Positions 1 through 17,947 of a stretch of DNA of 64,000 nt are shown here, piece by piece. The notes beneath the pieces are model-generated. The model was given only the letters and a program-made list of their open reading frames with translations. It was not told the origin of the DNA and ran no database searches. The position numbers and the translations under genes were made by a program. Source of the stretch: Cenarchaeum sp. GTDB taxonomy: Archaea; Thermoproteota; Nitrososphaeria; Nitrososphaerales; Nitrosopumilaceae. The stretch covers positions 1,120,001-1,184,000 of the forward strand of contig OZ242221.1 of assembly GCA_965206845.1 (NCBI GenBank), given 5' to 3'. Position 1 is the first letter of the stretch, and the number at the start of each line of letters is the position of its first letter.

Positions 1-370
1 GGTGGCTCTCAAAGACTAGCAGCCTGCCGCCTGGGATGGGGCTTTGGCCAGACACCTGTATGCTGTGCAGGCCCACCCTGAGCGAGTCGGAGCGCCTCAG
101 CGTGCCGCCCATCGTCAGCGCAAGTATCTCGGCGCCGTAGCATATGCCCAGAAGCGGCTTTCCCTCGGATACGCAGTGCCTGATGATCCTGGAGTTGGGT
201 ACGTTGGTTCTGGAGTCGTTTACCCTGCGGCCCGACAGGATGACCGAGTCGAATCCGTCTGGCGGGCCGACGTCGGCGCAGCGGACGGACTTGAAGCGCG
301 CATTGCACGAGGTGAGTATCTCCTGCAGGTTTTTTGTGAACACGGATCCGTTGTCGACTACCAGCAGCAA
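1..370 (-). CDS. Class I glutamine amidotransferase (GMP synthase subunit A-like), runs off the window edge
   Basis: Manual translation from TTG at 370: MLLVVDNGSVFT...FDSVILSG...GKPLLGICYGAEILALTMGG...VFESH; contains the GATase1 PxLGICxG nucleophile elbow. Absent from the ORF track because it is truncated. Confidence 0.85.
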   Translation of the reverse strand, partial: MLLVVDNGSVFTKNLQEILTSCNARFKSVRCADVGPPDGFDSVILSGRRVNDSRTNVPNSRIIRHCVSEGKPLLGICYGAEILALTMGGTLRRSDSLRVGLHSIQVSGQSPIPGGRLLVFESH

Positions 371-3223
371 CTAGCTGCCTACCTCTACTGAGATGTAGTG
401 CATCTCGGTGATACCTTCGGTGTTTATTATGGTGCCAAAGTTGAAGACGTCCTCGCTCTCCTCCCACATGAAGACCCTGTCGGTCCTGGGCTTGACGTAG
501 CTGCTGATGAACGTGTCTATCAGCTCCAGCGTGTCATCCGTCTCGGTGTCGGTGATGTAGAAGATCTCGCCCTCCTTGAAGGACAGCGTGACCTGGATCG
601 ACGCGGGCCTGCTAATGCTGATGTCTTCTGCCTGGAACGCCGCTAACATCGTGTCTATGCGGTTCTCCCTTGTCAGCTCCGGCTGGTCGCCGTTGGTCAC
701 GGCGCTCGTCGTGGCCACGCCCGAGAGCTTTTGGAGGTATGCGGTAAAGGCGGCCTCTTGCGTATCGCCGAGCCCTACATAGTACTCCCCGGTGAACGCG
801 GCGCCCACCGCGGCGATGGTTCCCAGCTGCGCCACCACACCGCCGGCGCCGGCCGTATACACGGGGATGAAGTAGGTATCATGCTCGCCCACGTTGTACA
901 GGATGTTGTCGCCGATCCTGGGGTTGCGCAGCAGGGTTCTGAGCTGTGCAAAGTCGGGATCCCTGTCCAGCGCCTCGCGGACGGCGGTGGGCCCGATCAG
1001 CTTGGTGGTGGAATTGAGCGGCACTTCGTAGAACCGCATGTTGCCCAGGCTGGAGAGGTCGTTCTCGACTATCATGTATCCGGCCAGGTTCCTGCCCTGG
1101 GAGCCGCGCAGCTCCAGCGACAGCAGCCCGACAAACTCCGTCTGGTTGAATCCCGGCGGCTTGGCCTCGATGTAGTAAGGGTTCAGGCCCCTGGGTATCT
1201 CGTAGAACTCGTTTGCCTGTATGAATGTCTCCACGTTGTCCACGTGGTATATGTTGTACATCTCGGTCTTCCAGGTGAAGAGCTCCACCGGGTACCGGAT
1301 CTGCTCCTCCAGCCAGCTGGGGACGGGCTCTAACCTGTCCTGGTATTGGCTGACGAACATGTCCGCAAAGAAGTCGTCTCCGGACTGCAGCAGCCTGATG
1401 TTGCCGTCGTACGTGTCGATCAGCGCATAGCCCACCAGCCTCAGGTACGGGTTGCCCATGGACCATGGCACGTCGTCGGTGTCAAAGCCCACTATCAGCG
1501 GGACAAGCCAGTACGAGTTCTCGCCGTCGGTCACCGGCAGCGAGTCCAGCTCGTTGTTGAACAGGTTGTAGAGAAAGTACGGGTACAGCGTCTCCATCCT
1601 CTCGGTGATGTCCTTGTACCTCATAAGGTGGACCGGCTCGGTCGGGAACGACAGCAGAAAGTTTGGCTCAAACATGTAGCTCAGGGGTGGCGGTACCGTG
1701 AGGCCTCCGGTCCCGTCATATGACACACCACCCAGCTCGGCGCTCTCTACCCTGTTGACGGGGTATGCGGACCACTCCTCCTCCAGCAGTCCACCCTCGC
1801 CGTAGTAGATGGTCCTCTGTGAGAAGAACTTCCCGCTGTCCACTATGCTGCCGTCTGTCGCCTGCAGGGTCAGAAAGCCGTTTGGAACGTGGGTATACAC
1901 AAGGTGCTCGTTGTACCACAGGTTGTCCTGGCTTACCGACGGGGGCGTTATGGGCTTCATGGATGCGGTCCAGTACAGCGTGTTGTTGAAGCGCAGGATG
2001 TCGTTGTCCTCAAAGTCCACGTAGGGAATCAGGCCGATCTCTGGCTTGAGCTTGGCAAAGGCGGCCTCCCAGTCCCAGACGCGGATCACGCCCAGCACGT
2101 CGCTGTTGCTCTCTACGTAGTTCTCAATGTTGTTGGGTGAGATGGACTTGAGCTGGACGTCGTGGGTGTTCTCGTTGATCTTGTCCAGCTCCCCCAGGTA
2201 CCTGTTGACGCCGATCTGCTGTGCGGTGTACGGGCCCAGGAACTCGATCTTCCTTGCGTCGGCGACGCTGTCGTTTACCGTTACGATGCCTGCGGGTATG
2301 ATGCCGATGGCCAAAAGTATGAGAATCCTGATGTACACGTCGCGCTTTAGCATGTGGGTCAGAATCCTGGCCCTGATCCGATCTGTGACCGCAAACGCAA
2401 TGAGCGCCACGCCTGCCAGCATTATGCCCGCAATCACATACCTGGTGTTGTAGTCGATCTCCGCCGTAAAGAAGAGGTTGAAGCCAGCCCACAGGACGCC
2501 GATCCCTATTATCGCCTCGATGGTGGCGACGTAGTTGAGGTACCGGGGCTTTCCGTCGGCGGTGTCCTTGATGTAGGATGTTATCACCTTGAGCATGTTG
2601 TGCGCGCCGACGTACAGGACCAGGCGTAGCCCGATTACGCTCAGCAGGGAGGGGATCAGGATGACCAGCGCCGGAACCATGGGGATTACGGTATCTGCCG
2701 CATAGGCGCTGTCCGTTGGCGGCGTCACAAACGGTAGCGTAAAGAGGACGGGCAGGTTCTCGACGCCCAAAGTGTTGCCGTCGTAGAACTCCACTGCGGC
2801 AAAGCCGAACATCACGTTTGTGAAGAAGGCGCCAAAGAGGAGTATCTTTGTGACCTGCCATATCGAGAACTGGACCAGGCCCATCTTGTAGTCGCGAAAG
2901 CCGTTGATGTTCTTTGCGATCGGATCCCGGGGGCCGCGGTTGATAAACGAGATGGCCGTGCTTATGCTGTACCAGAAGATCGAGGACCTGGACACAAAGT
3001 TCACCCTGACCAGGGCGATGACCGAGAGCACCAGGGCGGATATGACGGAGTAGTACAGCGGCTTTGTGAACTCGTCGGCGAACTCGCCAAAGTTCATCCA
3101 CAGCGTGATGCTCTGGTTCCCCGTTATGATGAATATGATGATGGCCAGTATTCCGACAACCGCCCACGGGACATACTTGCCCGCGTCTGGTGGGGGAGCC
3201 TTCTCGGTGGACGTGCTATACAA
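371..3223 (-). CDS. UPF0182 family membrane protein
   Basis: 950 aa; multi-TM N-terminal half; W..EHLVYTH..GF, IYYGE, ALIDTYDG and IRYPVELF motifs typical of UPF0182. Confidence 0.85.
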   Translation of the reverse strand: MYSTSTEKAPPPDAGKYVPWAVVGILAIIIFIITGNQSITLWMNFGEFADEFTKPLYYSVISALVLSVIALVRVNFVSRSSIFWYSISTAISFINRGPRDPIAKNINGFRDYKMGLVQFSIWQVTKILLFGAFFTNVMFGFAAVEFYDGNTLGVENLPVLFTLPFVTPPTDSAYAADTVIPMVPALVILIPSLLSVIGLRLVLYVGAHNMLKVITSYIKDTADGKPRYLNYVATIEAIIGIGVLWAGFNLFFTAEIDYNTRYVIAGIMLAGVALIAFAVTDRIRARILTHMLKRDVYIRILILLAIGIIPAGIVTVNDSVADARKIEFLGPYTAQQIGVNRYLGELDKINENTHDVQLKSISPNNIENYVESNSDVLGVIRVWDWEAAFAKLKPEIGLIPYVDFEDNDILRFNNTLYWTASMKPITPPSVSQDNLWYNEHLVYTHVPNGFLTLQATDGSIVDSGKFFSQRTIYYGEGGLLEEEWSAYPVNRVESAELGGVSYDGTGGLTVPPPLSYMFEPNFLLSFPTEPVHLMRYKDITERMETLYPYFLYNLFNNELDSLPVTDGENSYWLVPLIVGFDTDDVPWSMGNPYLRLVGYALIDTYDGNIRLLQSGDDFFADMFVSQYQDRLEPVPSWLEEQIRYPVELFTWKTEMYNIYHVDNVETFIQANEFYEIPRGLNPYYIEAKPPGFNQTEFVGLLSLELRGSQGRNLAGYMIVENDLSSLGNMRFYEVPLNSTTKLIGPTAVREALDRDPDFAQLRTLLRNPRIGDNILYNVGEHDTYFIPVYTAGAGGVVAQLGTIAAVGAAFTGEYYVGLGDTQEAAFTAYLQKLSGVATTSAVTNGDQPELTRENRIDTMLAAFQAEDISISRPASIQVTLSFKEGEIFYITDTETDDTLELIDTFISSYVKPRTDRVFMWEESEDVFNFGTIINTEGITEMHYISVEVGS

Positions 3224-3529
3224 AACTGCTTTAGCTTGATATCTGCTAAATTAATGTCTTGCCACACGGCGTGCGGCATGCTGTGCCGGTGTACGCGTCC
3301 GTACAGGTTCCTGCTCCCGGCAGGCGGTCCTGCGCCATGGCAGGGGGGTGCGCGTAAAGGACTCGGAGGGCTTCGATCCCCCGATCTGGCGGTCCGAAGC
3401 CGCCCGCACTGTCCTGACTGTGCTACGAGTCCAGCAGGACGGGGGCGGCGGCAACCTAAATACCTGACTTTTCGTGCCGGGCGTCCCGCATCGATAACCT
3501 AAATTACGGTTCGGGTTCCACCATATGCC

Positions 3530-4714
3530 TTGAAGGTGTCAAAGAAGGTGACCGGCGTGGAGTATGCCATCCGGGACATAGTTGAGGCTGCCAGGAGGGT
3601 CCAGCAGCGGGGCATACGTGTCGACTACCTCAACATAGGCGATCCTGTGCAGTACGGCTTTCAGCCTCCGGCAAACGTGAGGGAGGCCATGATAGACGCG
3701 ATCCGGAGGGGAGACAACTACTACTCGCACTCCGAGGGCCTGCCCGAGCTCAGGGCCGAGATCGCAAAAAAGGAGGAGTCCAAGGGTCTCTCGGTCACTG
3801 CGGACGACATCCTGGTCACCAACGGCGTCTCTGAGGCGCTGGACATGGTGATGTCCTCCATAGTGGAGGACGGGGACGAGGTCCTGCTCCCGGGACCCTA
3901 CTATCCACCGTATGCGTCATACATCCGGCTGCACGGGGGTGTGCCGGTGGAGTTTGCCGTGAACCCGGACGACCCGACGCCGGACATGGACGATATCCGC
4001 TCCCGGATCACGCCGAGGACCGTGGCAATATGCCTCATCTCGCCCAACAATCCCACGGGTGTGGTCTTTGACGGGCGGGCCCTCAAGGGCCTGGTGGACC
4101 TTGCCAACGAGCACGGCCTCTACATCATATGCGACGAGATATACGACAAGATAGTCTTTGACGGAGAGTTTACGGGCATGGGCGGCGCGTCCGGCGACTC
4201 GCCGGTCATAATCCTCAACGGCTTCTCCAAGGGGTACCTGATGACGGGGTGGCGGATAGGCTACATCGCCTTTAACCGGTCTCCGTCGCTGCAGCAGCTG
4301 AGGGAGAACCTGCCCAAGCTTGCGCGGGTGCGCATCTCCACAAACCTGCCGGTGCAGTACGGGGCTCTGGAGTCCCTTCGGGGGCCGCAGGATTACATAT
4401 CTGACTTTGTCTCGGAGATCAAGAAGCGCCGCGACATGGTGGTAAAGCGCCTCAACTCGATCCCCGGCCTGTCGTGCTCCAATCCCCGGGGGGCGTTCTA
4501 CGTCTTTCCGAGGATAGAGCACAACCCGTTCCCGTCTGACCTGGAGTTCGTCTTGGGGCTGCTGGAGAAGGGTGTGCTGGCGGTTCACGGCTCCGGCTTT
4601 GGGGCGCAGCACGGCTCGAACCACTTTCGGCTTGTGTTCCTGCCGCACCCGGACATACTGGACTCGGCGCTCGACAGGATCGAGTCCTTTGTGGGCACGG
4701 CCATGCGGCCCTAG
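3530..4714 (+). CDS. PLP-dependent aminotransferase class I/II (aspartate/alanine aminotransferase-like)
   Basis: YLNIGDP, SPNNPTG, DEIYD and GFSKGYLMTGWRIGY (PLP lysine) motifs. Confidence 0.92.
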   Translation: MKVSKKVTGVEYAIRDIVEAARRVQQRGIRVDYLNIGDPVQYGFQPPANVREAMIDAIRRGDNYYSHSEGLPELRAEIAKKEESKGLSVTADDILVTNGVSEALDMVMSSIVEDGDEVLLPGPYYPPYASYIRLHGGVPVEFAVNPDDPTPDMDDIRSRITPRTVAICLISPNNPTGVVFDGRALKGLVDLANEHGLYIICDEIYDKIVFDGEFTGMGGASGDSPVIILNGFSKGYLMTGWRIGYIAFNRSPSLQQLRENLPKLARVRISTNLPVQYGALESLRGPQDYISDFVSEIKKRRDMVVKRLNSIPGLSCSNPRGAFYVFPRIEHNPFPSDLEFVLGLLEKGVLAVHGSGFGAQHGSNHFRLVFLPHPDILDSALDRIESFVGTAMRP

Positions 4715-4718
4715 CCGG

Positions 4719-5108
4719 TCAGTACTGCCAGCCCCATGTCCTGTCGGGCGTGATCTCTACGATGCAGTCCGTGTCATCAAGCAGGTCCTGCGCGGCCCTG
4801 GTCATGCTCTCAAAGTACCGCATCAGGATCCTGGTTGCGATCCCCTTGACGCTGGAGTCCAGGATGAGCCGGGCGCGGCCTTGGCCTGCCACGCCGTATA
4901 TGTTCGGCGCGTTTATCCCCACGTCCACGCAAAAGCCGACCCGGTCGTCCCTTTGGATGTTTCTTACCTTTCTGCTCTTTGCGCTGGTGCCGATGTAGAA
5001 TTTTCCTGCGTCGTACAGGTACCATAGCGGCGTCACGTGCGGCCCGCCGTCCTCGGCGGTGGCAAGCCGGATTATCCGGGAGTCGCGCAGGAAATCATCG
5101 CGGCGCAA
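4719..5108 (-). CDS. Pyridoxamine 5'-phosphate oxidase-like (PPOX / F420-binding split barrel) protein
   Basis: RLAT..DGGPHVTPLWY, K..NI..D.RV.F.VD motifs; co-oriented with the F420 reductase gene. Confidence 0.8.
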   Translation of the reverse strand: MRRDDFLRDSRIIRLATAEDGGPHVTPLWYLYDAGKFYIGTSAKSRKVRNIQRDDRVGFCVDVGINAPNIYGVAGQGRARLILDSSVKGIATRILMRYFESMTRAAQDLLDDTDCIVEITPDRTWGWQY

Positions 5109-5328
5109 CGTTCTTCCTAAACCCCATGGCTATCATGAATGCCCCAAAGGCGATCATCGCAAGAGAGAGCTTCTCGTTTGTGAACTCCGCGCTCAGTATA
5201 AAGTCCAGCACAAAGTCCGGAGTCCACAGGGCAACCTGTCTCGCGAGCGTGATGCATGCCATAATTATGAACAGGAGTCCGATGGCGGTGTACCAGTTCC
5301 TGCCGCGGCGGTAGTATTCGGTGCTCAT
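5095..5328 (-). CDS. Small two-TM membrane protein
   Basis: MSTEYYRRGRNWY... with two hydrophobic helices, packed between npdG and the PPOX gene. Confidence 0.65.
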   Translation of the reverse strand: MSTEYYRRGRNWYTAIGLLFIIMACITLARQVALWTPDFVLDFILSAEFTNEKLSLAMIAFGAFMIAMGFRKNVAPR

Positions 5329-5335
5329 GCCGGGA

Positions 5336-6007
5336 CTAGACAACCTTGATGCCGGGATTCCTGATCTTGTTTCTTATCATGGCGTTGAGGAGCAGCGGCG
5401 TTGCGATCTCTGCCATATACGCAAGCTTTCCCGGTCCCAGACGTATGGGGCGTAGCCCGTCGATCTCGCTTATCAGGCCTTCGACTGTGGCGGTGGCCTC
5501 CCTGTCATCCCCGCACACAAATATGTCATAGTTCAGCTGCAGCTTTGGGTTTGCCAGCTTCTTCTCGGATATTACATGAAACGCAGATACCACGCGGGAC
5601 GCATCTTTTGCGTGCCTTGAGACCATCACGTGGGACGACTCCCTGCCGTCCATCATCGGAATGAACTCAAAGCCGGTGTCGGTCTTGACCATGGGTACTA
5701 TGGGCGATACCACGACGCACCCGTCTCCTGCCGCAGACAGCACCTGGGGGCACACCGAGTCGATGTTCTCATACGGTATGGACAGTATCAGAACGTCGCT
5801 CTGCCTTGCGACCTCTGCGTTGCCGTCCCCTGAGATGGTGCCGCCTATGTCGCCGTGGATCCCCCTTGCAAGCTCCAGGTATTCGCTGGCTGCCACAGCG
5901 GCCCTTCCGGCATCCCTGGAGCCTATCAGGATCTCGTGCCTTGTGCACCACCGCAACGCAAACCCCCTTCCCATTCCGCCGGTGCCTCCGATGATGCCGA
6001 TTCTCAC
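5336..6007 (-). CDS. npdG: NADPH-dependent F420 reductase
   Basis: MRIGIIGGTGGMGRG Rossmann fold, IGSRD, LSIPY, VVSAFH, VCGDD motifs. Confidence 0.85.
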   Translation of the reverse strand: MRIGIIGGTGGMGRGFALRWCTRHEILIGSRDAGRAAVAASEYLELARGIHGDIGGTISGDGNAEVARQSDVLILSIPYENIDSVCPQVLSAAGDGCVVVSPIVPMVKTDTGFEFIPMMDGRESSHVMVSRHAKDASRVVSAFHVISEKKLANPKLQLNYDIFVCGDDREATATVEGLISEIDGLRPIRLGPGKLAYMAEIATPLLLNAMIRNKIRNPGIKVV

Positions 6008-6056
6008 AGCAATCGTCTGGGAATGTTATTATTATCTCTATGCGAAGGCAGTGGAC

Positions 6057-6680
6057 TTGTCGCTGATAGTATTTTTGAGGCACGGCCAGGCACTAAACAA
6101 CGTGCAGAAGATTCTTGCAGGCAGGACGCCTGGCTACGAGCTGACGCAGAAGGGAGTGGAGCAGGCCCGGGCAGCGGCACGGATGCTCCGGCCCCTTGGC
6201 ATATCCCACATATACTGCAGCCCCATCGAGCGCGCGCGCCAGACCGCCGGTATCGTGGCAGGGGAGGTATCGGCAGACGTCACCCCGGATGACCGCCTCC
6301 TGGAGCTGGACATGGGCAGTTTTACCGGCATGAGATATGACGACATCGAGCCCAGGTACGGAAACGTCTTTGAAAAGTTCTACCACGGCAGCCCGGATAT
6401 TGAGGAGAACGGCATCGAGTCCTTTGCCGATGTGAGGCAGCGGGTGGCCGACATGGCAGACCATATAGTCCGGAGCCACCCCGAGGAGAACACCCTGCTG
6501 GTGACCCACATGGATCCCGTCAAGGCCATGCTGGCAAACGTGACGGGCCTGAACCCGCACTCGCTGTACCGGCTGATAATCGCAAACGCGTCACTGAACA
6601 TATTTGCGCAGCACCAAGGCGAGATCTATCTCATGGGCCTCAATGTCGTGGACACCGCAAGGTTCAACGACGTATGGTAG
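6057..6680 (+). CDS. Histidine phosphatase / phosphoglycerate mutase family protein
   Basis: LRHG, SP..RA.QTA, L.E.D.G and LLVTH motifs; start placed at TTG 6057 (the upstream ORF extension is the antisense of npdG). Confidence 0.88.
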   Translation: MSLIVFLRHGQALNNVQKILAGRTPGYELTQKGVEQARAAARMLRPLGISHIYCSPIERARQTAGIVAGEVSADVTPDDRLLELDMGSFTGMRYDDIEPRYGNVFEKFYHGSPDIEENGIESFADVRQRVADMADHIVRSHPEENTLLVTHMDPVKAMLANVTGLNPHSLYRLIIANASLNIFAQHQGEIYLMGLNVVDTARFNDVW

Positions 6681-6937
6681 CCCCAGAGCACAAGGCTTTG
6701 TGCTTTCACCAAGCAGAGAATTCACTGACGGTGATGGCGTATTTGCCTGATGAGGATGTGCGGGCAAGAGCCCGAATGCCAGTCATCCATGTGCAAGACG
6801 GACATTGCCATGGCTGTACATCTCTTGGCAGCTCCTGCCATGGAGCAATAGGTGGTACCTCCGATGCCGAGAAAGGAGCATGCGGAGACCGGAGCCTTTC
6901 CAGACCGGACAGGTCGTTGCCGATTCTAGGAAGAATC

Positions 6938-7144
6938 ATGGTATGGATAAAAAAAGAGGCAAGGAAGGCCGCCCACCGGATGGCAGACGGAGATATACAG
7001 ACTCGCACGAGACGGTGTGGTTCTAGGGGATATTCCAAAAAGATTCACGTAAGGAGGCATGCCAGAAAAACAGAAGCCAAAGAGAACAAAAAGTTTCAGA
7101 AATGGGTAGATGCCAACGTCAAAGGGAAGACAAGGAGCATCTGA
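6938..7144 (+). CDS. Possible small basic hypothetical protein
   Basis: MVWIKKEARK...KGKTRSI, 68 aa, K/R-rich, at the left edge of the AT-rich islet; no recognisable motif. Confidence 0.3.
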   Translation: MVWIKKEARKAAHRMADGDIQTRTRRCGSRGYSKKIHVRRHARKTEAKENKKFQKWVDANVKGKTRSI

Positions 7145-7373
7145 TGGCGGCTATACTTGATGGTGTCCGGCCTGCGCGCCCACCAACGCAGTCATGACGC
7201 AAGGTACAAGCCGAGATGGAAAACCTGCCATGGCACAGGACGGACCAGGCGCAGGGAGTAGTTTTGAGCGTAACGCACAGCAATCGGTTGGAGTCAGAGC
7301 CGGTGTCCTAATGTCTGCAGCCATGGTACATGCTTGTATTGATCATAAATGCAGAAAACTGCCCATTCTAGAT

Positions 7374-7441
7374 TATACACTTTCGCGAAATCGTATATGG
7401 GTGATACATATAGGATTATATGTGCAGAAAAAGCTTTAAAT
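7374..7441 (+). promoter_or_regulatory. BRE/TATA promoter with two upstream inverted repeats
   Basis: GAAAAAG-CTTTAAA ending at 7440, 24 bp before ATG 7464; IRs TATACacTTTCGCGAAAtcGTATA (7374-7397) and ACATATA-ggat-TATATGT (7406-7423). Confidence 0.6.
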
Positions 7442-7463
7442 TCTAGATTTATGCTCCTTAGAT

Positions 7464-9476
7464 ATGGTTAAGAGAGCAGACATAACTCCAGACAAGTCAC
7501 TGATTCAAAAGCTTGGACTGGTGGGATACAGAGACATGATCCGCAATTAAGAAGCCTTCGATGCCCATAATCTTACAGAGTGCTCCAAAGATTGCAGAGC
7601 TGCTAATGTGCCTGACAATTACGAACATCTCAGAACGGAGCAGGCGATTGCAGAGCTGCTGGACAATTCCATCGACGCGAGAGTTGAAGGCAGAAAGGAA
7701 ATGATTACTGTGCGGCTAAGCCCAAATGAGAGAATGATTCAAGTCACAGACGATGGGCATGGCATGAACGAAGATGATCTGGCCGATGCAATGACGGTTG
7801 CAAAGGGCACAAAACTAAAAGGACAACTAGGGCAGTTCGGCATGGGGATGAACAGCGCGTGCTCCGCATTAGGGAAAAACTTCGTTATCGCAACATCAAA
7901 GGCCGACTCGGATGAGGAATACCAGACAGAGTACGACGAGGAAAAGTGGCTGTCAGACGAATCAAAAGGTTGGAAGAACCTTGAAATAACTGCAAGAACG
8001 TTGGGCGAAGGTGAAAAATGGCACGGCACAAAAATCACAATCAAAAAACTAAAGGTCCCAGTATATCCAAACCAGGTATCGAAGTTTAAGGAAAGTTTTG
8101 GAACACGCTATGCTCCATACTTGAAGTCCGGCCACATCTCAATAAGGATCAATACGACGTTCTGCATACCGGAAAAACCGGATGTGGTGGAAGGCAGCAC
8201 AAGCGAGGTCAAGATAGGTCTATCAAAAAGCAACAAACTCTGGGGGCATGTTGCATTATTGAAAAAAAGATCTGTACGAGGAGATTATGGCATCCATTTA
8301 TTTAAGAACAAACGATTAATCAAGGCAAATGAAAAATTTGGGTTTTCCGCACACCCAAAACAGGCACAGGTGGTTGGAGCATTAAACATGGATCACGTTC
8401 CGGTTAATTTTAACAAGAGCGGATTCATTGAAGACAGTCTGGAATACCAAGAAGCCCTATCTGCATTTCAGGAATCCCCGGAATTAAAGAGCATATTGCG
8501 CCTAGCCCAATCAAGAAGAGAGATTGTTGCATCTGTAGAGTCAGTGTTTGATTACTTTGGCGGGAAATCACCACAACAGTATTTGGATCGCAGCGTAAAC
8601 TTGAAAATTGCAGGCGAGATATTGGACAAAACACCTAGGCTGGAAGTGAAGATGGACAACAAACTGGTAGATATACGTCTGGAGGCACTGGGAGACCTTC
8701 CTCTTTATACAATAAACGGCGGCAATTCGCAAATCACCGTTGTCATAAACAAGGACAATAGAGCATTCAAATTCGTAAAAAATCCGTTATTTTTGATCGG
8801 GATGATTGCATCGGAAATAAAAATTCTTGCAACGAGTCCCAATTTTGAGAATGTTGTCAAGGAAAGAAATCGGAGCCTTGGTAAGTTTGTAGAAGAATGG
8901 TCCAAAAAACCAGGCGAAGCGAGTTTCAGGGACAGAGAAGTAGAGATACCATATATGGTAAACTACAAACTAGCCAACGATCTGTTTGAACCGCACGAAT
9001 ACCTTAAAGAAAAAATAGGGTTCAGGTTTCAGTTTACCGCACTGTCAACCCTAGTACCATACCTGCACAATTTGCGCGGTAAGGTAGTGTATACAGTGTA
9101 TACAGAACCTGGGAAGGGCGAGTACCTTGCAGACATGCTTGGCCAAAAATTTGACAGCAAGTTTGTTGTGGTAAACAAACCCAAATCCGATATGCTAAAC
9201 ATGCTGTTGCAAATCCCGACAGTAGACAGAATTATTGCGATAAGAGAATACTCGGTAATTGGGGGATCAACAGTGGCAGCTCCGGAAAAGGCCTATCTTG
9301 ATCTGGTAAATGAGGCTGGCCGGGGCGTCCCTGTAGGCGAAACAGAGCTTAGAAAAGTATTTTCAAGCATGCGGAGATACAACCTGATTGATCACACAAA
9401 ATTAAGGACATATGCCAGCTTTACCAAGAGAATAGGCGCCCTTGAGCGCATACTGGGGGACGGACTGCAGTGGTAG
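7464..9476 (+). pseudogene. MORC-like GHKL ATPase (HATPase_c_3 + S5 fold) fused to C-terminal AbiEi/DUF6577-like domain; interrupted near the 5' end by a MITE (may be expressed from GTG 7608)
   Basis: Removing the insert restores MVKRADITPDKSLIQKLGLVGY-RTEQAIAELLDNSIDA. GHKL boxes ELLDNSIDA, DDGHGM, GQFGMG, HGTKIT; S5-like GIHLFKNKRLI and VPVNFNKSGF; C-terminal VAAPEKAYLDL...IDHTKLRTYA. Confidence 0.75.
7532..7630. mobile_element. MITE family A, copy 1 (99 bp, CAG TSD)
   Basis: Flanked by CAG...CAG; imperfect TIR AGACATGATCCGCAATT / AATTACGAACATCT; reverse complement aligns with 20577-20714; excision restores the host reading frame and motif. Confidence 0.85.
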
Positions 9477-9841
9477 AGCTTCACTTCGCCGATCAGCTGA
9501 AACAGGATAACATAGAAAGAATTCTGGCAGAAAATGACTTTCAAAATGCGTATCCTGTAGAGCAATTCATAATGGATTTCGAAGCGCTTGTACATATCCA
9601 AGAAAAATTACCTGATTGCGTAGTGAGAGGTGGAATGGCCGTGCCCTTTCACATAAATGACAGTACACTACACAGGCTAAGTGTAGACATAGACATTGTA
9701 ACCGGCCATTCAAGAACCGAAGTCATATCCGCAGTGAGTGAAATTAGAAAAACGCTTGGGAGAAAAATAGACATTCCAGATCCTCATATTCCAAGGAGGT
9801 ACCAGATGGTAGGCGGAATGTGCAGACCCGTACAAACATGA
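9470..9841 (+). pseudogene. AbiEii-family nucleotidyltransferase toxin (type IV TA), C-terminally truncated
   Basis: VVRGGMAVPFH...HRLSVDIDIV matches the AbiEii GG..A / R.S.D.D catalytic motif; only 123 aa; start overlaps the upstream gene end by 7 nt. Confidence 0.75.
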
Positions 9842-10602
9842 GTGGGTTCTTCTGCAAACACGAGTGGTGGATCCGACTGTTCACACCCTGTCGCGACAGC
9901 CCCTCTCCATGCAGAGGATCAGATCTCCAGCGTACGCGCCGGACAGCTGAAAAATTTGATCGCAGAGTATGATGCCCCCGGGCACAGGATCTACAAAACA
10001 TGAAGATCCGGCCCGCATGACTCTTGCTACGGCGAACAGGAAAACCAGCAAGTGGTGCCAAAAAGAGATCCTGCCCTGGGAGATTGGGCGCCTCAGCATC
10101 TAGATCGCCAGCGGAACTAGGCCAGGAGGCTGGAAGCAAGACGCTGGGAGGTGGCCCTGCAGCCAGTCTACAGGAAATGGTGCCGGGTGATCCGGCGACT
10201 ATGTCTTGTGATTCTGCACCGATCTAGCATGACTTTGTGCTAGCCTGGCGCGCGGCTCCGCACAAAACCCACATCCAGATCTTACATAAAGTGCCGCTAC
10301 AAGCGCGAGATCGGCACCAAAACGAGGACATTTAGACACCATCTGTATTTGCAGAAGAACCTATGAAGAGCTGGCCCGTTTGAGACATGGACGGCTGAAT
10401 GCGTAAAGTATTCCACAGGCATGGCATCGGTCAAGTACCGCAGCGGATTATCGCACGACGCCGTGAATAGTGACGTCTTGGATAGTGCGTGTGTGTTTTG
10501 GTGTTCTAGCGGAATATGTGCGGATGTACAAGAAGAGCCACAACTAGGCTCCGGCACCGGAGAACCCAACATTAAATTAGCAACATAGGTGATTTCACAC
10601 TA

Positions 10603-11403
10603 TTGGAAGTGGATGAGCAGGACCTGCCGGAGCCCGGAGAGATCGTACTGGCCACCGTGACTAGGATCATGGACCATGGCGCGTACGTCAGCCTGGACGA
10701 GTACAGCGGCATACAGGGGTTTCTCCACATCTCCGAGATCGCCCCGGGCTGGATAAGGTCCGTCAGCAAGTTCGTCAAGCATGGCGAGAAGAAGGTGCTG
10801 CTGGTCAAGAGGGTGAACCTGGAGCGCTCCGACGTTGACCTCTCCCTCAAGCAGGTCTCCACGGATCAGAAGAAGAAAAAGCTGCTGGAGGTCAAGCGGT
10901 TTGAAAAGTCCCAGACGTTTTTGGAGAGCATCAAGGAGAACGCCGGACTCTCAGACGCCGGGCTGGAGAGCCTGGAGGACGATCTGTACAACAAGTATGA
11001 TTCCATATATGGCGCCTTTGTGGACGTGGCAAGAAACGGCATCGGCGTTCTTGACGGCATGGACATCTCAAAGAAGATATCAGACGCGCTCGAGGACGTC
11101 TGCAAGAAGATACGGCTCCCCTCGGTGGAGATAAGGGGCGTGCTGGAGATCTCAAGCAACCGTCCCGACGGCGTTGACGTGATCAAAAAGGTCCTGACAG
11201 GCGCCAGCAACAGCGAGCGCAGCCCCGGGGTGATGATCACGTACCTTGGGGCGCCAAGGTACAGACTGTCCCTCACCTCGCAGGACTTCAAGTCCGCAGA
11301 AAAGTCACTCAAGCCCATCCTGACCCAGATACGGCGCTCCATTGAGGCAAAGAAGGGGACCTTCAAGTTTGACCGGGAAGAGTCAAGGAAGACCAGGGAG
11401 TAG
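10603..11403 (+). CDS. eif2a: Translation initiation factor aIF2 alpha subunit
   Basis: LPEPGEIVLATV S1 domain, GFLHISEIAPGWIR, YLGAPRYR. Confidence 0.95.
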   Translation: MEVDEQDLPEPGEIVLATVTRIMDHGAYVSLDEYSGIQGFLHISEIAPGWIRSVSKFVKHGEKKVLLVKRVNLERSDVDLSLKQVSTDQKKKKLLEVKRFEKSQTFLESIKENAGLSDAGLESLEDDLYNKYDSIYGAFVDVARNGIGVLDGMDISKKISDALEDVCKKIRLPSVEIRGVLEISSNRPDGVDVIKKVLTGASNSERSPGVMITYLGAPRYRLSLTSQDFKSAEKSLKPILTQIRRSIEAKKGTFKFDREESRKTRE

Positions 11404-11405
11404 GC

Positions 11406-11570
11406 ATGAGGTTCCAGATTAGAAGGTGCAGCAGCTGCCGCGCATACACGCTGGAAGAGACATGCCCCAAGTGCGGCGGGCCCGCCGAGTCGGCGCACCC
11501 GGCAAAGTTCTCCCCCGACGACAGGTACATGCGGTACCGGCTCAGGGCAAAGTATGAGGAACAGGCCTAG
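11406..11570 (+). CDS. nop10: H/ACA RNP protein Nop10
   Basis: Manual translation MRFQIRRCSSCRAYTLEETCPKCGGPAESAHPAKFSPDDRYMRYR; canonical position after aIF2-alpha. Confidence 0.95.
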   Translation: MRFQIRRCSSCRAYTLEETCPKCGGPAESAHPAKFSPDDRYMRYRLRAKYEEQA

Positions 11571-14209
11571 GGCAGGGTGGCCGAGTTGATCCTGATCTCC
11601 AGTATCTCCGCCTGCCCGAGATCCAGCGGCTCGTTCTGATCGTCGGTCTCCAGCTCGGATATCGCATCTATCACGTCATCCCCCACAAAGACGCTGCCAA
11701 AGGCCACGTAGCCGTCGGCGATCCACGGGGTGCCGGAGTCTATTATGAAGAACTGCGGGTCGGCCCCGCCAAGGGAGGATCCCCTGGCGGCTGCCAGCAG
11801 GTATCCGGCATCGACAAAGTCATCAAATGTGGGCCCCGCGGGAAATCCCGGCGCGGCAGACGCAGGCAGGGCGGCCCCGGGACTGCCTCCCTGCAGCAGG
11901 ATTCCCGGCACGACCCGGTGGAAGAATGCTCCGTTGTACGCGCCGGCATCTGCCTGCGCGACAAAGCCCTCGACCAGCTCGGGCTGCGTCCTCCTGTCAA
12001 GGAGTATGCCTATCTCTCCCTGGCCGGTGCTGATGGTGGCTATCTCAAGCTGCCTCTGCGTGGATGCGACCGGCGGCGCCTGGCCCGGGACATAGTCCTG
12101 GTTCACCTCGTAGATGAACACGCCCACTATGGGGCCGGACTCGGCGGCAAAGCTTGGGGACGAGTAGGCCAGCCGCAGCGGCCCGTCCCCGTCCGCTGGG
12201 AGCTTGACGTTCTTCTCCAGCAGGGCCAGGGTGTTGGGCTGCCAGTCGGGCGCCTGCTCGCCGGTCTCCGGGTTTATGTACACGCGCGGCGAGAACGGGA
12301 TCATGCTTCCCAGCATCGTGTTCTCCCAGAAGAAGTTGGTCTCCGTGGACTGGTCCTCGTGGAGGTACCTTGAGAGCGGTTCCTCGGCTATGCGTATGAA
12401 CCAGTAGTTCTTCTGCTCGTCCCCGCCCCCGTTGAGCACGTAGGTGGGAGGCTCGCTGCCGATGCCCAGGGCGGCGATAAAGATCAGCACGTAGTCGGCC
12501 TTCAGCTCCTGCAGCTTTGCCCACGCGTCGTCGGGGTGGCTCAGCATCATCCTTGCCAGATCGGCTATGCGCTTGTCGTCTGACGTGAAGTTGTCGGCCA
12601 GCGTGGTCCGCTCACCCAGCGTGGTGATCCAGTACCCGTAGTCCCACCAGGCGGCGACTATCGAGTCGGGAGGGGTGCTTGTCCTTATCCACTCCAGCGC
12701 GTGGTGCCAGTCGTTGGAGACCACGCCAAAGCTTGTCCCGCCGTTGAGTATCGTGGGGGGCGCCTTGACGCCGGTGATCCAGTTCCCGTCGGCGGGCGCC
12801 ACGGTGGGTATGATCAGGAGCATGACGATGGCCGCCACGAAGGATGCCTGCATGAGGTTTCTTGTCCTGCCCCGGGACCTCCGGTCCGGATTCTCCGGAT
12901 GAAAGAACATTCCCGAGATTATGGACAGGGCGAGGGCGGAGAGTATGATGACCGCTATCGCGGCAAATATCTCCAGCCTGATAAACGCCGAGCTCACGTA
13001 GACGCCGGTGATTCCCAGGATCAGCGCGAACGCGGCCATCTCGGGCTTTTCCCGGAGGGGGCCGTTGATCTTGCCGGAGAGCAGCAGCCAGGCGCCGATT
13101 CCCGCAAATATCATCAGGACCGACAGGAACCAGAACGACGTGCCGGTGTCGGCCGTTGCGTGCTCTGCCACCGAGTCCACAAGGGGGTGGATGGTCGTCA
13201 GGAACGGGTTGACGGCGTTGAGGTACCGGAAGGAGGGCAGGGGTATGAACTGCTGCAGGGAGTTTACGTAGAGCAGCAGCATGGATCCGGCAAAGCTTCC
13301 CAAGAGAAAGATCAGGCTGTTTCTCAGCCCCGCGGCGCCGCTCCGCGTCTTGATGAGTATGATTGCCGCCATGAGTATGGTCGGCACGACTATGGTTATG
13401 CCGCCCAGGCCGGCGACAAACTCGAGCCCCGGCCTCTCAAATAGGAGGACCGTGCTCAGGAATACGGCCCCAAAGAGCGGGACTATCCAGAGCAGGAACC
13501 TGTGGTCGCTTCTGAAGAACGGCAGGGCCAGGATGAAGATCGCGATCGGTATCACAAAGTACTGTATCCCGCCCCAGGATGCCAGCCCGAAGGAGAGAAA
13601 GAGGCCGCCGGCGGCAACCTTTGCTGCCGCAACCCTCCTGTCTGCGGATCTTATTCCGCTCAGGAAGAGGTACATGGCCAGGAGCCCGTAGAACAGGCCC
13701 ATGGGCTCTGACTTGAACCACCCCATGGTGCCCCGGACGATTATGGCTGGGGAGATCGCAAAGAACAGGGCCGCGAAGAGCCCCGCGCCGGTCCCGCCGA
13801 TGGTGCGCACCAGGGCAAAGATCACCACGGCGGTGAGCGCGCCGACGACCGCGGGAAAGATGATTATGAACGAGAGCAGATCCATGCCGCCGCCAAATAG
13901 GTAGTACGTGGCGGCCGCGGTGATGTGCAGCATTATCTGGGACGTCGCGGAGACGTCCCGGCCGTTGGGATACCATGACATGTAGTCGTGCCATTCGTAG
14001 TACTCCTCAAGCCCGTTCTCCACCAGGAACTCGGTCGCCCTGTAGTTGAAGTAGGGATCAAACTCGTTCAGCTCAAAGCCGTAGTCCGCCCCCTGGAAGC
14101 GGATCATGGACGAGAGCGAGAACGCTATGATCAGGATCCCTATGACGAGCAGGTGGCTGCGCCTGAACTCAAAACCGCGTACAGAGAAGAGCCGGGTATC
14201 AGTTATCAA
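11567..14209 (-). CDS. aglB: Oligosaccharyltransferase AglB/STT3 with C-terminal cyclophilin-type PPIase-like domain
   Basis: EFDPYFNYR, SVAEH, AWWDYGYWI and LADN STT3 motifs; last ~165 aa carry FFHRVVPG.LLQGG, QFFI and VAFGSV cyclophilin motifs. Confidence 0.9.
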   Translation of the reverse strand: MITDTRLFSVRGFEFRRSHLLVIGILIIAFSLSSMIRFQGADYGFELNEFDPYFNYRATEFLVENGLEEYYEWHDYMSWYPNGRDVSATSQIMLHITAAATYYLFGGGMDLLSFIIIFPAVVGALTAVVIFALVRTIGGTGAGLFAALFFAISPAIIVRGTMGWFKSEPMGLFYGLLAMYLFLSGIRSADRRVAAAKVAAGGLFLSFGLASWGGIQYFVIPIAIFILALPFFRSDHRFLLWIVPLFGAVFLSTVLLFERPGLEFVAGLGGITIVVPTILMAAIILIKTRSGAAGLRNSLIFLLGSFAGSMLLLYVNSLQQFIPLPSFRYLNAVNPFLTTIHPLVDSVAEHATADTGTSFWFLSVLMIFAGIGAWLLLSGKINGPLREKPEMAAFALILGITGVYVSSAFIRLEIFAAIAVIILSALALSIISGMFFHPENPDRRSRGRTRNLMQASFVAAIVMLLIIPTVAPADGNWITGVKAPPTILNGGTSFGVVSNDWHHALEWIRTSTPPDSIVAAWWDYGYWITTLGERTTLADNFTSDDKRIADLARMMLSHPDDAWAKLQELKADYVLIFIAALGIGSEPPTYVLNGGGDEQKNYWFIRIAEEPLSRYLHEDQSTETNFFWENTMLGSMIPFSPRVYINPETGEQAPDWQPNTLALLEKNVKLPADGDGPLRLAYSSPSFAAESGPIVGVFIYEVNQDYVPGQAPPVASTQRQLEIATISTGQGEIGILLDRRTQPELVEGFVAQADAGAYNGAFFHRVVPGILLQGGSPGAALPASAAPGFPAGPTFDDFVDAGYLLAAARGSSLGGADPQFFIIDSGTPWIADGYVAFGSVFVGDDVIDAISELETDDQNEPLDLGQAEILEIRINSATLP

Positions 14210-14387
14210 CGCATGTGGGCGGGGGCGCAAAGAATATTACTCTTTTGTGGGCTTGTGCGACAAAATACCGCCTGCCGCGCCAAGCCAGGCGTGCAGGCAC
14301 TTCTGCGTGTGCAGATCCATGCCTGGGGGCCTTGCCGGGGCCCACGGTTCGCGCTGTTTAAACACAAAAAGTGCAACGGGTACCACA

Positions 14388-14534
14388 ATGACTGGAACCG
14401 ACACCAAACCGGTATCCGATCCGGCAGAGGATGAGAGTGGCGAGGCGGAGATGGACGGGGAGAGCTTGCACGAGTTTGTAGAGGAGACACTGCGCAAGAA
14501 CAAGGCGGTGTACGAACGGTTGGCCGATACTTGA
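14388..14534 (+). CDS. 48-aa acidic small protein
   Basis: ATG 14388 about 25-30 bp after TGTTTAAACA; MTGTDTKPVSDPAEDESGEAEMDGESLHEFVEETLRKNKAVYERLADT. Confidence 0.5.
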   Translation: MTGTDTKPVSDPAEDESGEAEMDGESLHEFVEETLRKNKAVYERLADT

Positions 14535-14834
14535 GGATAAAACCAGTCTGGCATGATCTGCCGGATGCCCACGAACCTGTAGGCCGTCTCTGGATCCGTG
14601 GCCGGAGAAAGCCCCATGGGGGGATCTGTCTTGGCCCGGATGCCTGGTCAGGATGCGGGCCATATCTTGCACGGTGCGCCGCCGGCTGCCGCTTGGGACA
14701 CGGGGTATCCGGGGCGCACATCCCGGCGCACGGGCAAATGCGTGATCGCGGATCCCTGGATCCCGCGGGCGATCATTCCTATAAAGCTACAATCTGACAA
14801 AGCTTTAATTAGTACAAGCTAAGACGTGAGTCTT

Positions 14835-15047
14835 ATGGGACGAAGCTACCAAGAATGGATAAATCAGCAGGATCAGGCACTAGTTGCCAAGGTTAGAGCT
14901 GGCGACGAGGACAACAAGCCCCTCCTTAACCAGATCAACTGGATCTGGGTTGCAAACCTTATGGCACAAAAGGCGGACCTGAACCCAAGTTCTGCCGAAC
15001 TACTTGACTGGGTAACCTCCGGTCAGATCGACGCAATGAGAAAGTAA
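14835..15047 (+). CDS. Small hypothetical protein (thaumarchaeal-type)
   Basis: Own TATA box (CTTTAATTA near 14803) and T-rich terminator; MGRSYQEWINQQD...WVTSGQIDAMRK. Confidence 0.75.
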   Translation: MGRSYQEWINQQDQALVAKVRAGDEDNKPLLNQINWIWVANLMAQKADLNPSSAELLDWVTSGQIDAMRK

Positions 15048-15061
15048 GATCTTTCACATAG

Positions 15062-15087
15062 TTCTCTTTTGTTTTTTCTTTTGTTTC
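15062..15087 (+). terminator. Oligo-T archaeal terminator
   Basis: TTCTCTTTTGTTTTTTCTTTTGTTTC shortly after the stop at 15047. Confidence 0.55.
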
Positions 15088-15293
15088 TAATGTGGACATG
15101 ATCGCGGCTTGGCGCGGGCTCGTCCGGCGGCAGTTTTTTGCTCCCTCATCGGCGATCAGACTGGCACAGCCCGGGTTCCGAGGACTTACGCACGGTTTGC
15201 GGCACATGCGATCGACATAACTCTATAACCCCGTTATGGATTTCAATCATAGTTTAAATAGCAATCTCAAGATTGTTTAGTTAAGTGAAATAA

Positions 15294-15596
15294 ATGCCAA
15301 TAGCAATACTTCCTGACATAGACGAGCAGAGATGTATCGGATGCGCACTTTGTGTGGAAATCTGTACAACTCTCGGTCCAGACGTACTCCGCGTAAAGCC
15401 CGTTGAGGGCTGGAAGAGGGGAAAGGCATTTGTCTTTTATCCGGAGAGATGTATCTCTGACGGCGCATGCATCGGCGTGTGTCCGACAAAGTCCATCTTC
15501 TGGATGAGGCCAATGAACTACACCGCCGGACAGCCGGTACCTCTTCACGCAAACGGAGTCTTCCAGAAAGGCTGGGCAGAAGACGCCGCCCTCTAG
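15294..15596 (+). CDS. Dicluster [4Fe-4S] ferredoxin
   Basis: CIGCALCVEIC and CISDGACIGVCP motifs; TATA TTTAAATA upstream and T-tract at 15614-15630 downstream. Confidence 0.92.
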   Translation: MPIAILPDIDEQRCIGCALCVEICTTLGPDVLRVKPVEGWKRGKAFVFYPERCISDGACIGVCPTKSIFWMRPMNYTAGQPVPLHANGVFQKGWAEDAAL

Positions 15597-15719
15597 GCGG
15601 AGTCTCTGTACATCTCTTTTTTCATTTTTTAGATGCGACCTCTTCGGGCCGGTCATGCCGCGCGCCCCAGGCTGTTGTACAGGCGGCACGCTGGCCCCTT
15701 TGCATGGCGTATTGTGGTA

Positions 15720-17240: not shown

Positions 17241-17275
17241 GCCTGCGCGTTGGGCAGCGGGTTATTAATTCCCAT

Positions 17276-17818: not shown

Positions 17819-17947
17819 ACCCGTACTGGGGCGGATCCGGTTAATTTACTGTGCTGTATCTGCGCCGCCCGGGAGGCAGCCTGCGCCCCGGCGCGGGGAG
17901 ATCCGGCATCAAAGTGTTTATGTGTGGCCGTGGCATGGCGGATCCCT

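Follow-up and report, generated by a model that had tools for sequence, protein, structure and literature searches.

A broken copy of a conserved archaeal gene pair joining a predicted MORC-like ATPase–DUF6577 protein to an AbiEii-like nucleotidyltransferase

The two genes at the locus

We have analyzed a two-gene locus in a stretch of 64,000 nucleotides (nt) from the genome of a Cenarchaeum sp. (positions 1,120,001–1,184,000 of contig OZ242221.1, assembly GCA_965206845.1; the genome is a single contig of 1.65 Mb). This whole stretch is referred to as the window, and coordinates are positions in it unless a contig is named. Gene 1 encodes a predicted MORC-like GHKL ATPase that ends in a DUF6577-like domain, and gene 2, which overlaps its 3′ end, encodes the beginning of an AbiEii-like nucleotidyltransferase. 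Gene 1 is broken by a miniature inverted-repeat transposable element (MITE) that carries a stop codon, and gene 2 is a remnant only. The locus in this genome is a relic, and this copy is not a working system (Table 1). It is probably a dead copy of a conserved two-gene module of the toxin–antitoxin (TA) or abortive-infection type, in which an antitoxin headed by an ATPase is paired with a toxin of the AbiEii/MenT class.

All of the motifs that an initial annotation of the window had read in gene 1 (ELLDNSIDA, DDGHGM, GQFGMG, HGT, GIHLFKNKRLI...VPVNFNKSGF and VAAPEKAYLDL...IDHTKLRTYA) and in gene 2 (GGMA...RLSVDIDIV) are present in the frames it gave, as is the 7-nt overlap between the GTG start codon of gene 2 (9470) and the gene 1 stop codon (9474–9476). 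Its treatment of 7464–9476 as one open gene does not stand: the frame from the ATG at 7464 runs for 28 codons and then meets an in-frame TAA (7548–7550) within a 102-nt insertion, a break that the annotation had missed. The closest homologue of gene 1 (P0001; intact, 636 amino acids (aa), 95% identity over residues 22–636) is continuous from ...LVGYR to TEQAIAELLDNSIDA, where the window has 34 additional codons, and with the insertion removed gene 1 would likewise encode 636 aa. The longest gene 1 open reading frame (ORF), of 622 aa, begins at a GTG (7608) that is itself inside the insertion, and it retains all of the Bergerat motifs. The N-terminal strap, which lies upstream of the insertion, contains 11 columns (among residues D6–Y22) in which none of the 22 homologues varies, so the loss of continuity matters.

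The first 66 nt of the inserted copy (7531–7596) are 88% identical to a 139-nt MITE-like element that is present in 32 copies in this genome (93.6–100% identity), with terminal inverted repeats of ~19 nt and 2-nt target duplications. A perfect copy of the element lies inside the window on the reverse strand (20577–20715). We also considered an intron or a programmed read-through at the TAA codon; both are ruled out, since what was inserted is a copy of a repeat that has 32 members and inverted ends, and a target duplication accompanies it. Rfam gave no match at the two-gene locus or at the MITE.

The initial annotation had taken gene 2 for an AbiEii toxin gene and had hinted at its truncation. 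The family assignment is borne out, but only codons 1–108 of the gene remain. A full-length partner from another locus (L011) aligns to the window by tblastn with 68% identity over its residues 1–108, and no trace of residues 109–382 was found by this search anywhere in the window. The remnant encodes a product of 123 aa and has lost ~270 residues relative to partners of ~382 aa. It keeps six residues that are invariant in the family (G54, G55, R69, S71, D73 and D75) and is without the conserved D179, K180, K201 and D205. Its match to Pfam AbiEii is just below the cut-off (22.2 bits versus 22.5), and the PADLOC AbiEii model matches it with an E of 2.9e-6.

Table 1. Features of the two-gene locus, in window coordinates.
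Feature	Positions	Strand	Evidence or remark
Gene 1, 5′ segment: ATG and conserved N-terminal strap MVKRADITPDKSLIQKLGLVGY	7464..7528	+	Translation; identical to start of P0001
Insertion: 100-nt diverged MITE copy and 2-nt target duplication (CA)	7529..7630	+	Absent from P0001
Gene 1, remainder, in frame with 7464–7528; stop 9474–9476	7631..9476	+	ORF and P0001 alignment
GHKL (Bergerat) ATP-binding domain	7635..7937	+	Pfam HATPase_c_3, E 1.4e-19, residues 10–110 of 622-aa ORF
MORC-type S5-fold domain	8250..8441	+	Morc6_S5, E 3e-4, residues 215–278 of 622-aa ORF
C-terminal DUF6577-like domain	8964..9467	+	hhalign and Pfam matches of homologues
Gene 2 remnant: AbiEii-like codons 1–108 (9470–9793) and unrelated 15-codon tail	9470..9841	+	Stop 9839–9841
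Deletion junction, ~820 nt of the gene 2 3′ end removed	9799..9800		Contigs of public runs
AT-rich islet with the two-gene relic	7300..9799		Left edge approximate; right edge is the deletion junction

The ATPase half of gene 1

The reading of the first half of gene 1 as a MORC-like GHKL and S5 module, made in the initial annotation, is upheld by the family as a whole. Pfam HATPase_c_3 matches 22 of 22 gene 1 homologues, and the Bergerat residues E30, N34, D62, G64, G66, G89, G92 and G94 are invariant in all of them. Morc6_S5 also matches all 22 at E <= 0.1 (best 3.1e-7), with several of the matches below the curated cut-off, including that of the window copy (21.3 bits, under 26.2). When the family profile was compared with solved structures, human MORC4 was the best match (E 5.2e-17), followed by MORC3 and MORC2 and then by the N-terminal domains of Hsp90 and GyrB. 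The MORC4 alignment spans both the GHKL and the S5 parts, the second stretch corresponding to profile positions 241–317. These comparisons support the assignment of gene 1 as a MORC-like ATPase with GHKL and S5 domains.

No winged helix-turn-helix (wHTH) family of Pfam was matched by gene 1 or its 22 homologues, and the middle region (residues ~300–455) had no match in the comparisons made. A protein-cluster look-up for one homologue (P0038) returned GHKL clusters only. The annotations of gene 1 homologues do not go beyond "ATP-binding protein" or "hypothetical protein".

The C-terminal domain of gene 1 and its stand-alone relatives

Homology to DUF6577 covers the last 165–170 residues of gene 1. 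The Pfam model matches 9 of the 22 homologues (best E 1.7e-7) at residues ~470–637, corresponding to profile positions ~35–198 of 204. When 1.84 billion representatives were searched with a profile of the 175 C-terminal residues, 258 proteins matched at E <= 1e-3. Among the 150 of these 258 matches that were listed, 26 are proteins of 619–676 aa whose C-terminal end carries the match, and most of the others are proteins of 200–311 aa in which the match follows an N-terminal portion of 55–135 residues. Alignment of the fused C-terminal profile (A3) to 66 stand-alone DUF6577 proteins with hhalign gave a score of 99.9% (E 4.7e-36; columns 78–244 of 273), and a profile of the C-terminal 320 aa (A2) matched one stand-alone protein at 97.1% (E 4.8e-11).

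The stand-alone proteins carry a winged helix ahead of this domain. Ten of ten sampled proteins match DUF6577 (nine of them above the Pfam cut-off); an AbiEi_4 wHTH was found in four of the ten, and TrmB-type winged-helix matches in others. The profile of the 66 stand-alone proteins (A8) matches solved winged-helix proteins through positions ~7–63 (the first ~60–85), and beyond the winged helix its matches to solved structures are few and weak (E >= 0.07). Since the homology to gene 1 begins directly behind the winged helix of the stand-alone proteins, the GHKL–S5 module has replaced the DNA-binding head of an AbiEi-type antitoxin, as had been proposed in the initial annotation. By homology, the body of DUF6577 is retained in the fused protein, and the winged helix is gone.

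An AbiEii-like gene lies immediately downstream of the stand-alone gene at all four testable loci (L089, L094, L120 and L121), either overlapping it or 0–35 nt away; three further loci stopped at a contig edge and are outside this count. The partner at L089 aligns to the gene 2 family with an hhalign score of 98.6% (E 5.4e-16). Of the searches made for further stand-alone loci, one in the class of genome G032 found a locus in 1 of 62 genomes (G032 itself), a single-protein search with P0210 found five loci, two of them testable, and a tblastn search of plasmids with P0167 gave no match.

The relationship to classical AbiEi is more distant. Nine AbiEi_1 proteins of the same phylum, each encoded beside an AbiEii of ~255–270 aa, align to the DUF6577 profile with an hhalign score of 96.3% (E 1.5e-9). 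This score drops without the winged helix, so that much of it is owed to that part of the proteins. Weak alignments place the PEK..LD and L..YA motifs of gene 1 on EK..(I/V)D and L..YA of AbiEi_1. It is likely, on this comparative evidence, that the C-terminal domain of gene 1 belongs to the AbiEi superfamily. The AbiEi-like or DUF6577 tail of the initial annotation is therefore firm as DUF6577, but marginal where the C-terminal part alone is compared with AbiEi_1 (see below). The label "type IV", which that annotation had used, is itself disputed for such pairs (PMC7205606).

The gene 2 family

Full-length partners encoded by gene 2 have 362–387 aa. They match Pfam AbiEii above the cut-off in six of six cases, and the PADLOC AbiEii model in three of three. 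In an alignment of 29 partners (A6, obtained from A5 by removing row L048, an unrelated ORF), residues G54, G55, R69, S71, D73, D75, K180, K201 and D205 are invariant, and D179 is conserved in at least 90%. The R-x-S-x-D-x-D spacing equals that of R76, S78, D80 and D82 in the TglT peptide given in PMC7205606, a match at the level of the motif only.

When the COG5340 antitoxin TakA/MenA3 is present, Ser78 of TglT/MenT3 becomes phosphorylated and the toxin is thereby inactivated; the critical residues of TakA are D74, S93, H98, P105 and D155 (PMC7205606). MenA antitoxins are reported to induce auto-phosphorylation of the toxin (PMC11375011), and published abstracts describe MenT toxins as enzymes that attach nucleotides to the 3′ ends of tRNAs.

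In a related genome, one gene 2 homologue (G224:C2:506422-508928) is split into two parts, residues 2–168 and 167–372, that lie ~1.4 kb apart. A further insertion into the toxin gene is the probable cause.

Distribution and pairing

A word-indexed protein search retrieved 316 gene 1 homologues at E <= 1e-3; the best 120 of them are 43–95% identical to gene 1 and nearly all have 624–715 aa. When one genome per species was scanned, 78 loci were obtained, 58 with a long form and 20 with a short form. The long form has an architecture of ~636 aa that consists of the GHKL domain, the MORC-type S5 domain, the middle region and the DUF6577-like C-terminal domain. Its hosts are almost all Nitrosopumilus, Nitrosopumilaceae, Cenarchaeum or Thaumarchaeota metagenome-assembled genomes (MAGs), the remainder being one Nitrososphaera, one bin labeled Dehalococcoidia and one "uncultured archaeon". 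The short form (419–724 aa) has only the GHKL and S5 part in common with the long form. The distribution within the family is patchy and multi-copy: among 301 family genomes, the C-terminal 320-aa profile matches 26 genomes in 9 of 27 genera, with up to six matches per genome, and the single relative of the same genus has no match to this profile.

Pairing was counted at 54 of the 78 loci, omitting the 20 short-form loci and four that are truncated or lie at a contig end (L032, L047, L051 and L053). Directly downstream of gene 1, 38 of these 54 loci have at least 300 gene 2 residues in one frame, nine have a partial or frameshifted gene 2 and seven have none, by criteria that did not include stop codons. 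At most of the intact loci with called ORFs, gene 2 starts between −11 and +7 nt relative to the gene 1 stop codon.

The two genes were also cross-tabulated in the 301 genomes, which hold 47 matches to the gene 1 C-terminal region and 33 to gene 2, in counts where kin are not independent. Of the 21 intact-looking copies of gene 2, 20 directly follow a gene 1 on the same strand, and the other begins 112 nt from the end of a contig. The two gene 2 matches that lack gene 1 are fragments interrupted by stop codons, and no intact gene 2 orphan was seen among these genomes. Conversely, next to 38 intact-looking copies of gene 1, gene 2 is intact in 20 cases, broken in seven (including the window) and absent in 11. 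A toxin that is never found whole on its own, and an antitoxin that often is, constitute the asymmetry expected of a TA pair. These counts also dispose of the concern that a fused gene next to a full-length AbiEii is a one-off artefact of the window; as judged from homology, such pairs form a conserved family of Nitrosopumilaceae archaea.

Both lesions in the population

The stretch is present, in whole or in part, in 20 public runs from nine studies. Alleles were compared in contigs from four of these runs (X1, X5, X13 and X16), each belonging to a different study; such contigs drop rare variants, so that neither frequencies nor absence can be proven from them. In all four runs, a contig joins position 7528 to 7631 and omits exactly the 102 nt of the insertion. 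The contigs without the MITE in X1 and X5 have 0–1 differences to the window across more than 600 flanking bases, and these near-zero differences indicate the existence of an otherwise identical allele with an uninterrupted gene 1 of 636 codons. Positions 7582–7630 are covered by no contig in the four runs, which leaves the MITE-bearing allele uncorroborated there in contigs that drop rare variants. The polymorphism of the insertion suggests that mobility of the MITE is recent or ongoing.

The junction of the gene 2 deletion (9799|9800) is bridged with no differences by window-like contigs in X1 (record 5) and X16 (record 21). An assembly artefact was considered as the source of the deletion and is ruled out by these window-identical contigs across the junction, which indicate that the deletion is real and common. 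A second, more divergent contig departs from the window after 9799 in all four runs; in X1 it has 8 differences in 124 nt (9676–9800). Its first 30 letters, read by hand in the gene 2 frame, give ...KQLPLLT, which corresponds to LPLLTY of the full-length partners. This divergent allele, from the same samples as the deleted one, reads on as a full-length gene 2 and seems to share the right flank from 9800.

A gene 1 free of the MITE (X1 and X5), together with a bridged deletion junction (X1 and X16), fits the loss of the toxin before the arrival of the MITE. The MITE insertion looks younger and is seemingly polymorphic, and the most likely order of events in the window is that the toxin gene was deleted first and that the MITE entered the orphan antitoxin gene later.

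Genomic setting

The locus is an AT-rich islet, as the initial annotation had noted. Its GC content (0.434 at 7300–9799) is well below that of the upstream (0.587 at 1–7299) and downstream (0.606 at 9800–20000) DNA and of the genome (0.571). It is flanked by a histidine-phosphatase-like gene on one side and by the aIF2-alpha, Nop10 and AglB genes on the other. Between the islet and aIF2-alpha, ~800 nt of GC-rich DNA (9800–10600) contain no convincing ORF. A genome of the same genus (G151) has no DNA match to the islet, its match being confined to the following aIF2-alpha gene; what it has at this position is a cobalamin-adenosyltransferase-like gene, along with an AT-rich variable region other than the islet. 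As the content differs between the two genomes, the DNA upstream of aIF2-alpha looks like a variable site. We searched the window for remains of the cobalamin-adenosyltransferase-like gene and found none; the gene sits elsewhere in the genome.

A classical pair, an AbiEi_1-type gene (46.3 bits, above the cut-off) followed by an AbiEii-like gene of ~253 aa, is found outside the window at ~681.5–683.4 kb of the same genome (locus L109, G000:C1), so that two different AbiE-type modules coexist in this genome. The only Rfam matches of the window at the gathering threshold are two tRNA genes (52987–53058 on the reverse strand and 62664–62748 on the forward strand).

Neighbors of the fused and short-form genes

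Neighbors of the fused clade were surveyed using 150 of the 164 ORFs from 39 intact-family loci, with ORFs longer than 900 aa left out and no background control. The 25 commonest PADLOC models among them include AbiEii (four ORFs) and two PDC candidate systems (two ORFs each), while CBASS cyclase, Cas12f/TnpB-like, DpdF, BrxH, PbeA, PsyrT and viperin models match one ORF each. Restriction-modification (RM) families are absent from the 25 commonest Pfam families of these 150 neighbors. The initial annotation had suggested a check for defense islands; scattered single matches to defense models are indeed present, but the defense-island signal around the fused-clade loci is weak, in a survey that had no background control.

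The short-form relatives, which share an N-terminal DITPDKSL motif and occur in candidate-phyla bacteria, DPANN archaea and others, have a different surrounding. Their neighbors (91 ORFs) include N6_N4_Mtase (three), Eco57I (three), N6_Mtase (three), Type_ISP_C (two) and DpnII (one), as well as metallo-beta-lactamase-fold proteins and the Shedu nuclease SduA_C. An association of paraMORCs with RM has been published (PMC2292703). At 3 of the 20 short-form loci (including L080:5971-7254 and L088:5977-7236), the ATPase is fused to a C-terminal mobile domain of phosphoenolpyruvate-utilizing enzymes (a swiveling phosphohistidine domain), and each of these genes is followed by an ORF of 372 aa without a Pfam match. 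In a Micrarchaeota MAG (L073:4888-7480), a short-form ATPase gene overlaps a downstream gene with Shedu SduA_C (E 7.9e-17), which is possibly an ATPase-regulated Shedu variant.

For sponge-associated Thaumarchaeota, an enrichment in transposases, TA and RM genes is stated in the abstract of PMC7848895, whereas its text says that TA modules overall are not enriched. The same paper, by Haber et al., reports a module of the AbiE family only in sponge-associated Thaumarchaeota, and the fusion is not described in the portion of it that was available.

Comparison with known systems

The pair resembles AbiE in being bicistronic: the antitoxin is encoded first, and its gene overlaps that of the toxin. 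The toxin matches both the Pfam (PF08843, DUF1814) and the PADLOC models of AbiEii, and the antitoxin contains the DUF6577 domain, whose stand-alone carriers have AbiEi_4-type or other wHTH domains and resemble AbiEi_1 over the whole protein. However, the autorepressing wHTH that defines AbiEi is absent and ~460 residues of GHKL, S5 and middle region stand in its place, the toxin is ~100 residues longer than the classical AbiEii of the same phylum, and the homology to AbiEi_1 is marginal when confined to the C-terminal domain. With MenAT3 or TakA-TglT (Rv1044-Rv1045), the pair shares a toxin of the DUF1814/AbiEii class, an upstream antitoxin gene with a short overlap and the motif spacing around S78 described above (PMC7205606). 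In contrast, there is no sequence match to the solved MenT and MenA chains, and MenA3 has no ATPase module. The stand-alone DUF6577 genes with long AbiEii-like partners, which are uncharacterized archaeal or metagenomic pairs, agree with the pair in the C-terminal domain, in the toxin family and in the order and tight spacing of the genes; these antitoxins, of 230–311 aa, have a wHTH head, whereas the fused form has an ATPase head.

The Bergerat motifs, the S5 domain and the ranking of solved relatives connect gene 1 to MORC and paraMORC proteins, and the occurrence of DITPDKSL short forms beside RM genes matches the published paraMORC theme (PMC2292703). Unlike that theme, the commonest neighbor families of the fused clade do not include RM, and gene 1 ends in an antitoxin-type domain where paraMORCs have been described with nuclease, TIR or HEPN domains (PMC2292703, PMC3710099). 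MzaB of the MZA system is the sole defense model of PADLOC or NCBIfam touched by gene 1, through the GHKL N-terminus. This match is weak, as it involves positions 25–117 of 500 (E 1.2e-5, PADLOC) or 120 N-terminal positions of a 480-position model, at 39.4 bits versus a cut-off of 850, and gene 1 is not a member of MZA.

PADLOC-DB 2.0.0 and NCBIfam contain no model for the gene 1 architecture, in agreement with the suggestion of the initial annotation that it is uncatalogued. Full-text literature searches, which did not extend to supplementary lists (PMC2292703; Table S11 of PMC7848895), found no description of a GHKL or MORC fusion to AbiEi or DUF6577, and none was found on DUF6577 by name. 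The terms AbiE and nucleotidyltransferase are absent from the available text of the paraMORC paper (PMC2292703) and of the Tiamat preprint. The architecture thus appears undescribed, and the pair appears to be of the AbiE/MenAT type with a new antitoxin architecture.

Proposed function and alternatives

We propose that intact gene 2 would encode a nucleotidyltransferase toxin of the AbiEii/MenT class and that gene 1 would encode its antitoxin, in which the wHTH head of an AbiEi/DUF6577 protein has presumably been swapped for a MORC-like GHKL–S5 ATPase and middle region while the DUF6577 domain was kept. The C-terminal domain would hold the toxin off, possibly by promoting phosphorylation of the invariant Ser71, by analogy with MenA/TakA. 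The GHKL–S5 part would act as an ATP-driven dimerizing switch that couples neutralization to a cellular or viral cue. Once released, the toxin would block growth or translation, most likely through nucleotides added to tRNA 3′ ends. In this genome, gene 2 would have lost its 3′ two thirds by deletion, and the MITE would later have entered a redundant gene 1. What the sequences themselves show are the domain homologies, the conserved pairing and catalytic residues, both lesions and the asymmetry of the orphans: an antitoxin-type domain is joined covalently to a MORC-like ATPase with conserved catalytic residues, and its gene is translationally coupled to that of an AbiEii/MenT-class enzyme. We infer the toxicity, neutralization, phosphorylation, ATP gating, lesion order and antiviral role. 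A further step, that intact members form an archaeal immune module in which the MORC-like clamp senses invading nucleic acid or a virus-induced state and then frees a tRNA-modifying toxin, is more tentative; we regard it as possible rather than probable.

Several observations weigh against a TA or abortive-infection module. The gene 2 profile (A6) has no match among solved structures at E <= 1, and the C-terminal 320-aa profile of gene 1 (A2) has none at E <= 10. When the C-terminal parts alone are compared, DUF6577 matches AbiEi_1 at a marginal level (probability 26%, E 7e-4), and the direct comparison of the fused domain with AbiEi_1 is not significant (E 0.024). No PADLOC model other than AbiEii, among the 25 commonest, is matched by more than two neighboring ORFs, and the commonest Pfam families among the 150 neighbors are the IS66 transposase (five) and TPR (four), with DDE_Tnp_1 in two. 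The 11 of 38 intact-looking gene 1 copies that stand without gene 2 raise the possibility that gene 1 has a role of its own. "Intact" refers here to the length of the open frame, by which even the interrupted gene 1 of the window passed, so that some N-terminal lesions were missed. Finally, the order of the lesions is read from contigs, which drop rare variants.

Some of these observations would also be explained by a plain addiction or stabilization TA pair with no antiviral role, in which the GHKL–S5 part stands in for the winged helix, for example as a DNA clamp in autoregulation or to stabilize the antitoxin, and senses nothing. The orphan asymmetry is of the kind that any TA pair would produce, and the transposases near the loci, the weak enrichment of defense genes and the reported abundance of transposases, TA and RM genes in sponge Thaumarchaeota (PMC7848895, although its text finds TA overall not enriched) all agree with this explanation. 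Nevertheless, none of the catalytic residues of the ATPase varies among the 22 homologues, and this speaks for an enzyme that cycles actively, not for a passive tether; the nearest GHKL–S5 relatives outside the clade adjoin RM genes, a Shedu nuclease and other conflict-type effectors; and the AbiE prototype is an abortive-infection system (PMC7205606). We therefore consider an addiction module rather unlikely, and somewhat more so than the immune role. A more radical departure would be that the genes are not toxin and antitoxin at all, gene 1 being a paraMORC-type DNA-processing ATPase that serves an unlinked RM system and gene 2 an accessory nucleotidyltransferase acting on nucleic acid, on a small molecule or on gene 1 itself. 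The published RM association (PMC2292703), the RM genes beside the short-form relatives and the gene 1 copies without gene 2 could be cited in its favor. It is made improbable by the lack of RM among the commonest neighbor families of the fused clade, by a C-terminal domain that gene 1 shares specifically with small wHTH proteins paired with the same nucleotidyltransferase family and by the lack of intact gene 2 orphans among the family genomes examined.

With regard to the window copy, it could be argued that a shortened ATPase made from the GTG at 7608, in which all of the Bergerat motifs are kept, still works together with a somewhat active 123-aa product of gene 2 that retains the GG and DxD motifs. 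This is hardly credible, given that the lost strap holds the invariant columns described above, that D179, K180, K201, D205 and ~270 residues are gone from the remnant and that similar partial relics of gene 2 occur at 9 of 54 loci. An ATPase-headed antitoxin paired with an AbiEii/MenT-class toxin, of which the window holds a dead copy, remains the probable explanation of the locus.

Implications

AbiE and MenAT pairs are widespread, but little is understood of the way in which their antitoxins are turned off. A conserved GHKL–S5 switch as the head of an antitoxin would be a natural handle on this question, as mutants without ATPase activity would be expected to fix the system in its on or off state. 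Prokaryotic MORC-like ATPases would also gain a functional context outside RM. If the immune role is true, sensor and antitoxin would be combined in one polypeptide, and GHKL ATPases of the MORC branch would be tied to TA-type abortive infection in ammonia-oxidizing archaea. The copy in the window is an evolutionary vignette: loss of the toxin apparently came first, an active MITE later struck the antitoxin gene left behind, and the population is still polymorphic for this insertion. The hosts of the family, marine and sponge-associated ammonia-oxidizing archaea, are globally important and genetically little explored, and their antiviral repertoire is barely charted.

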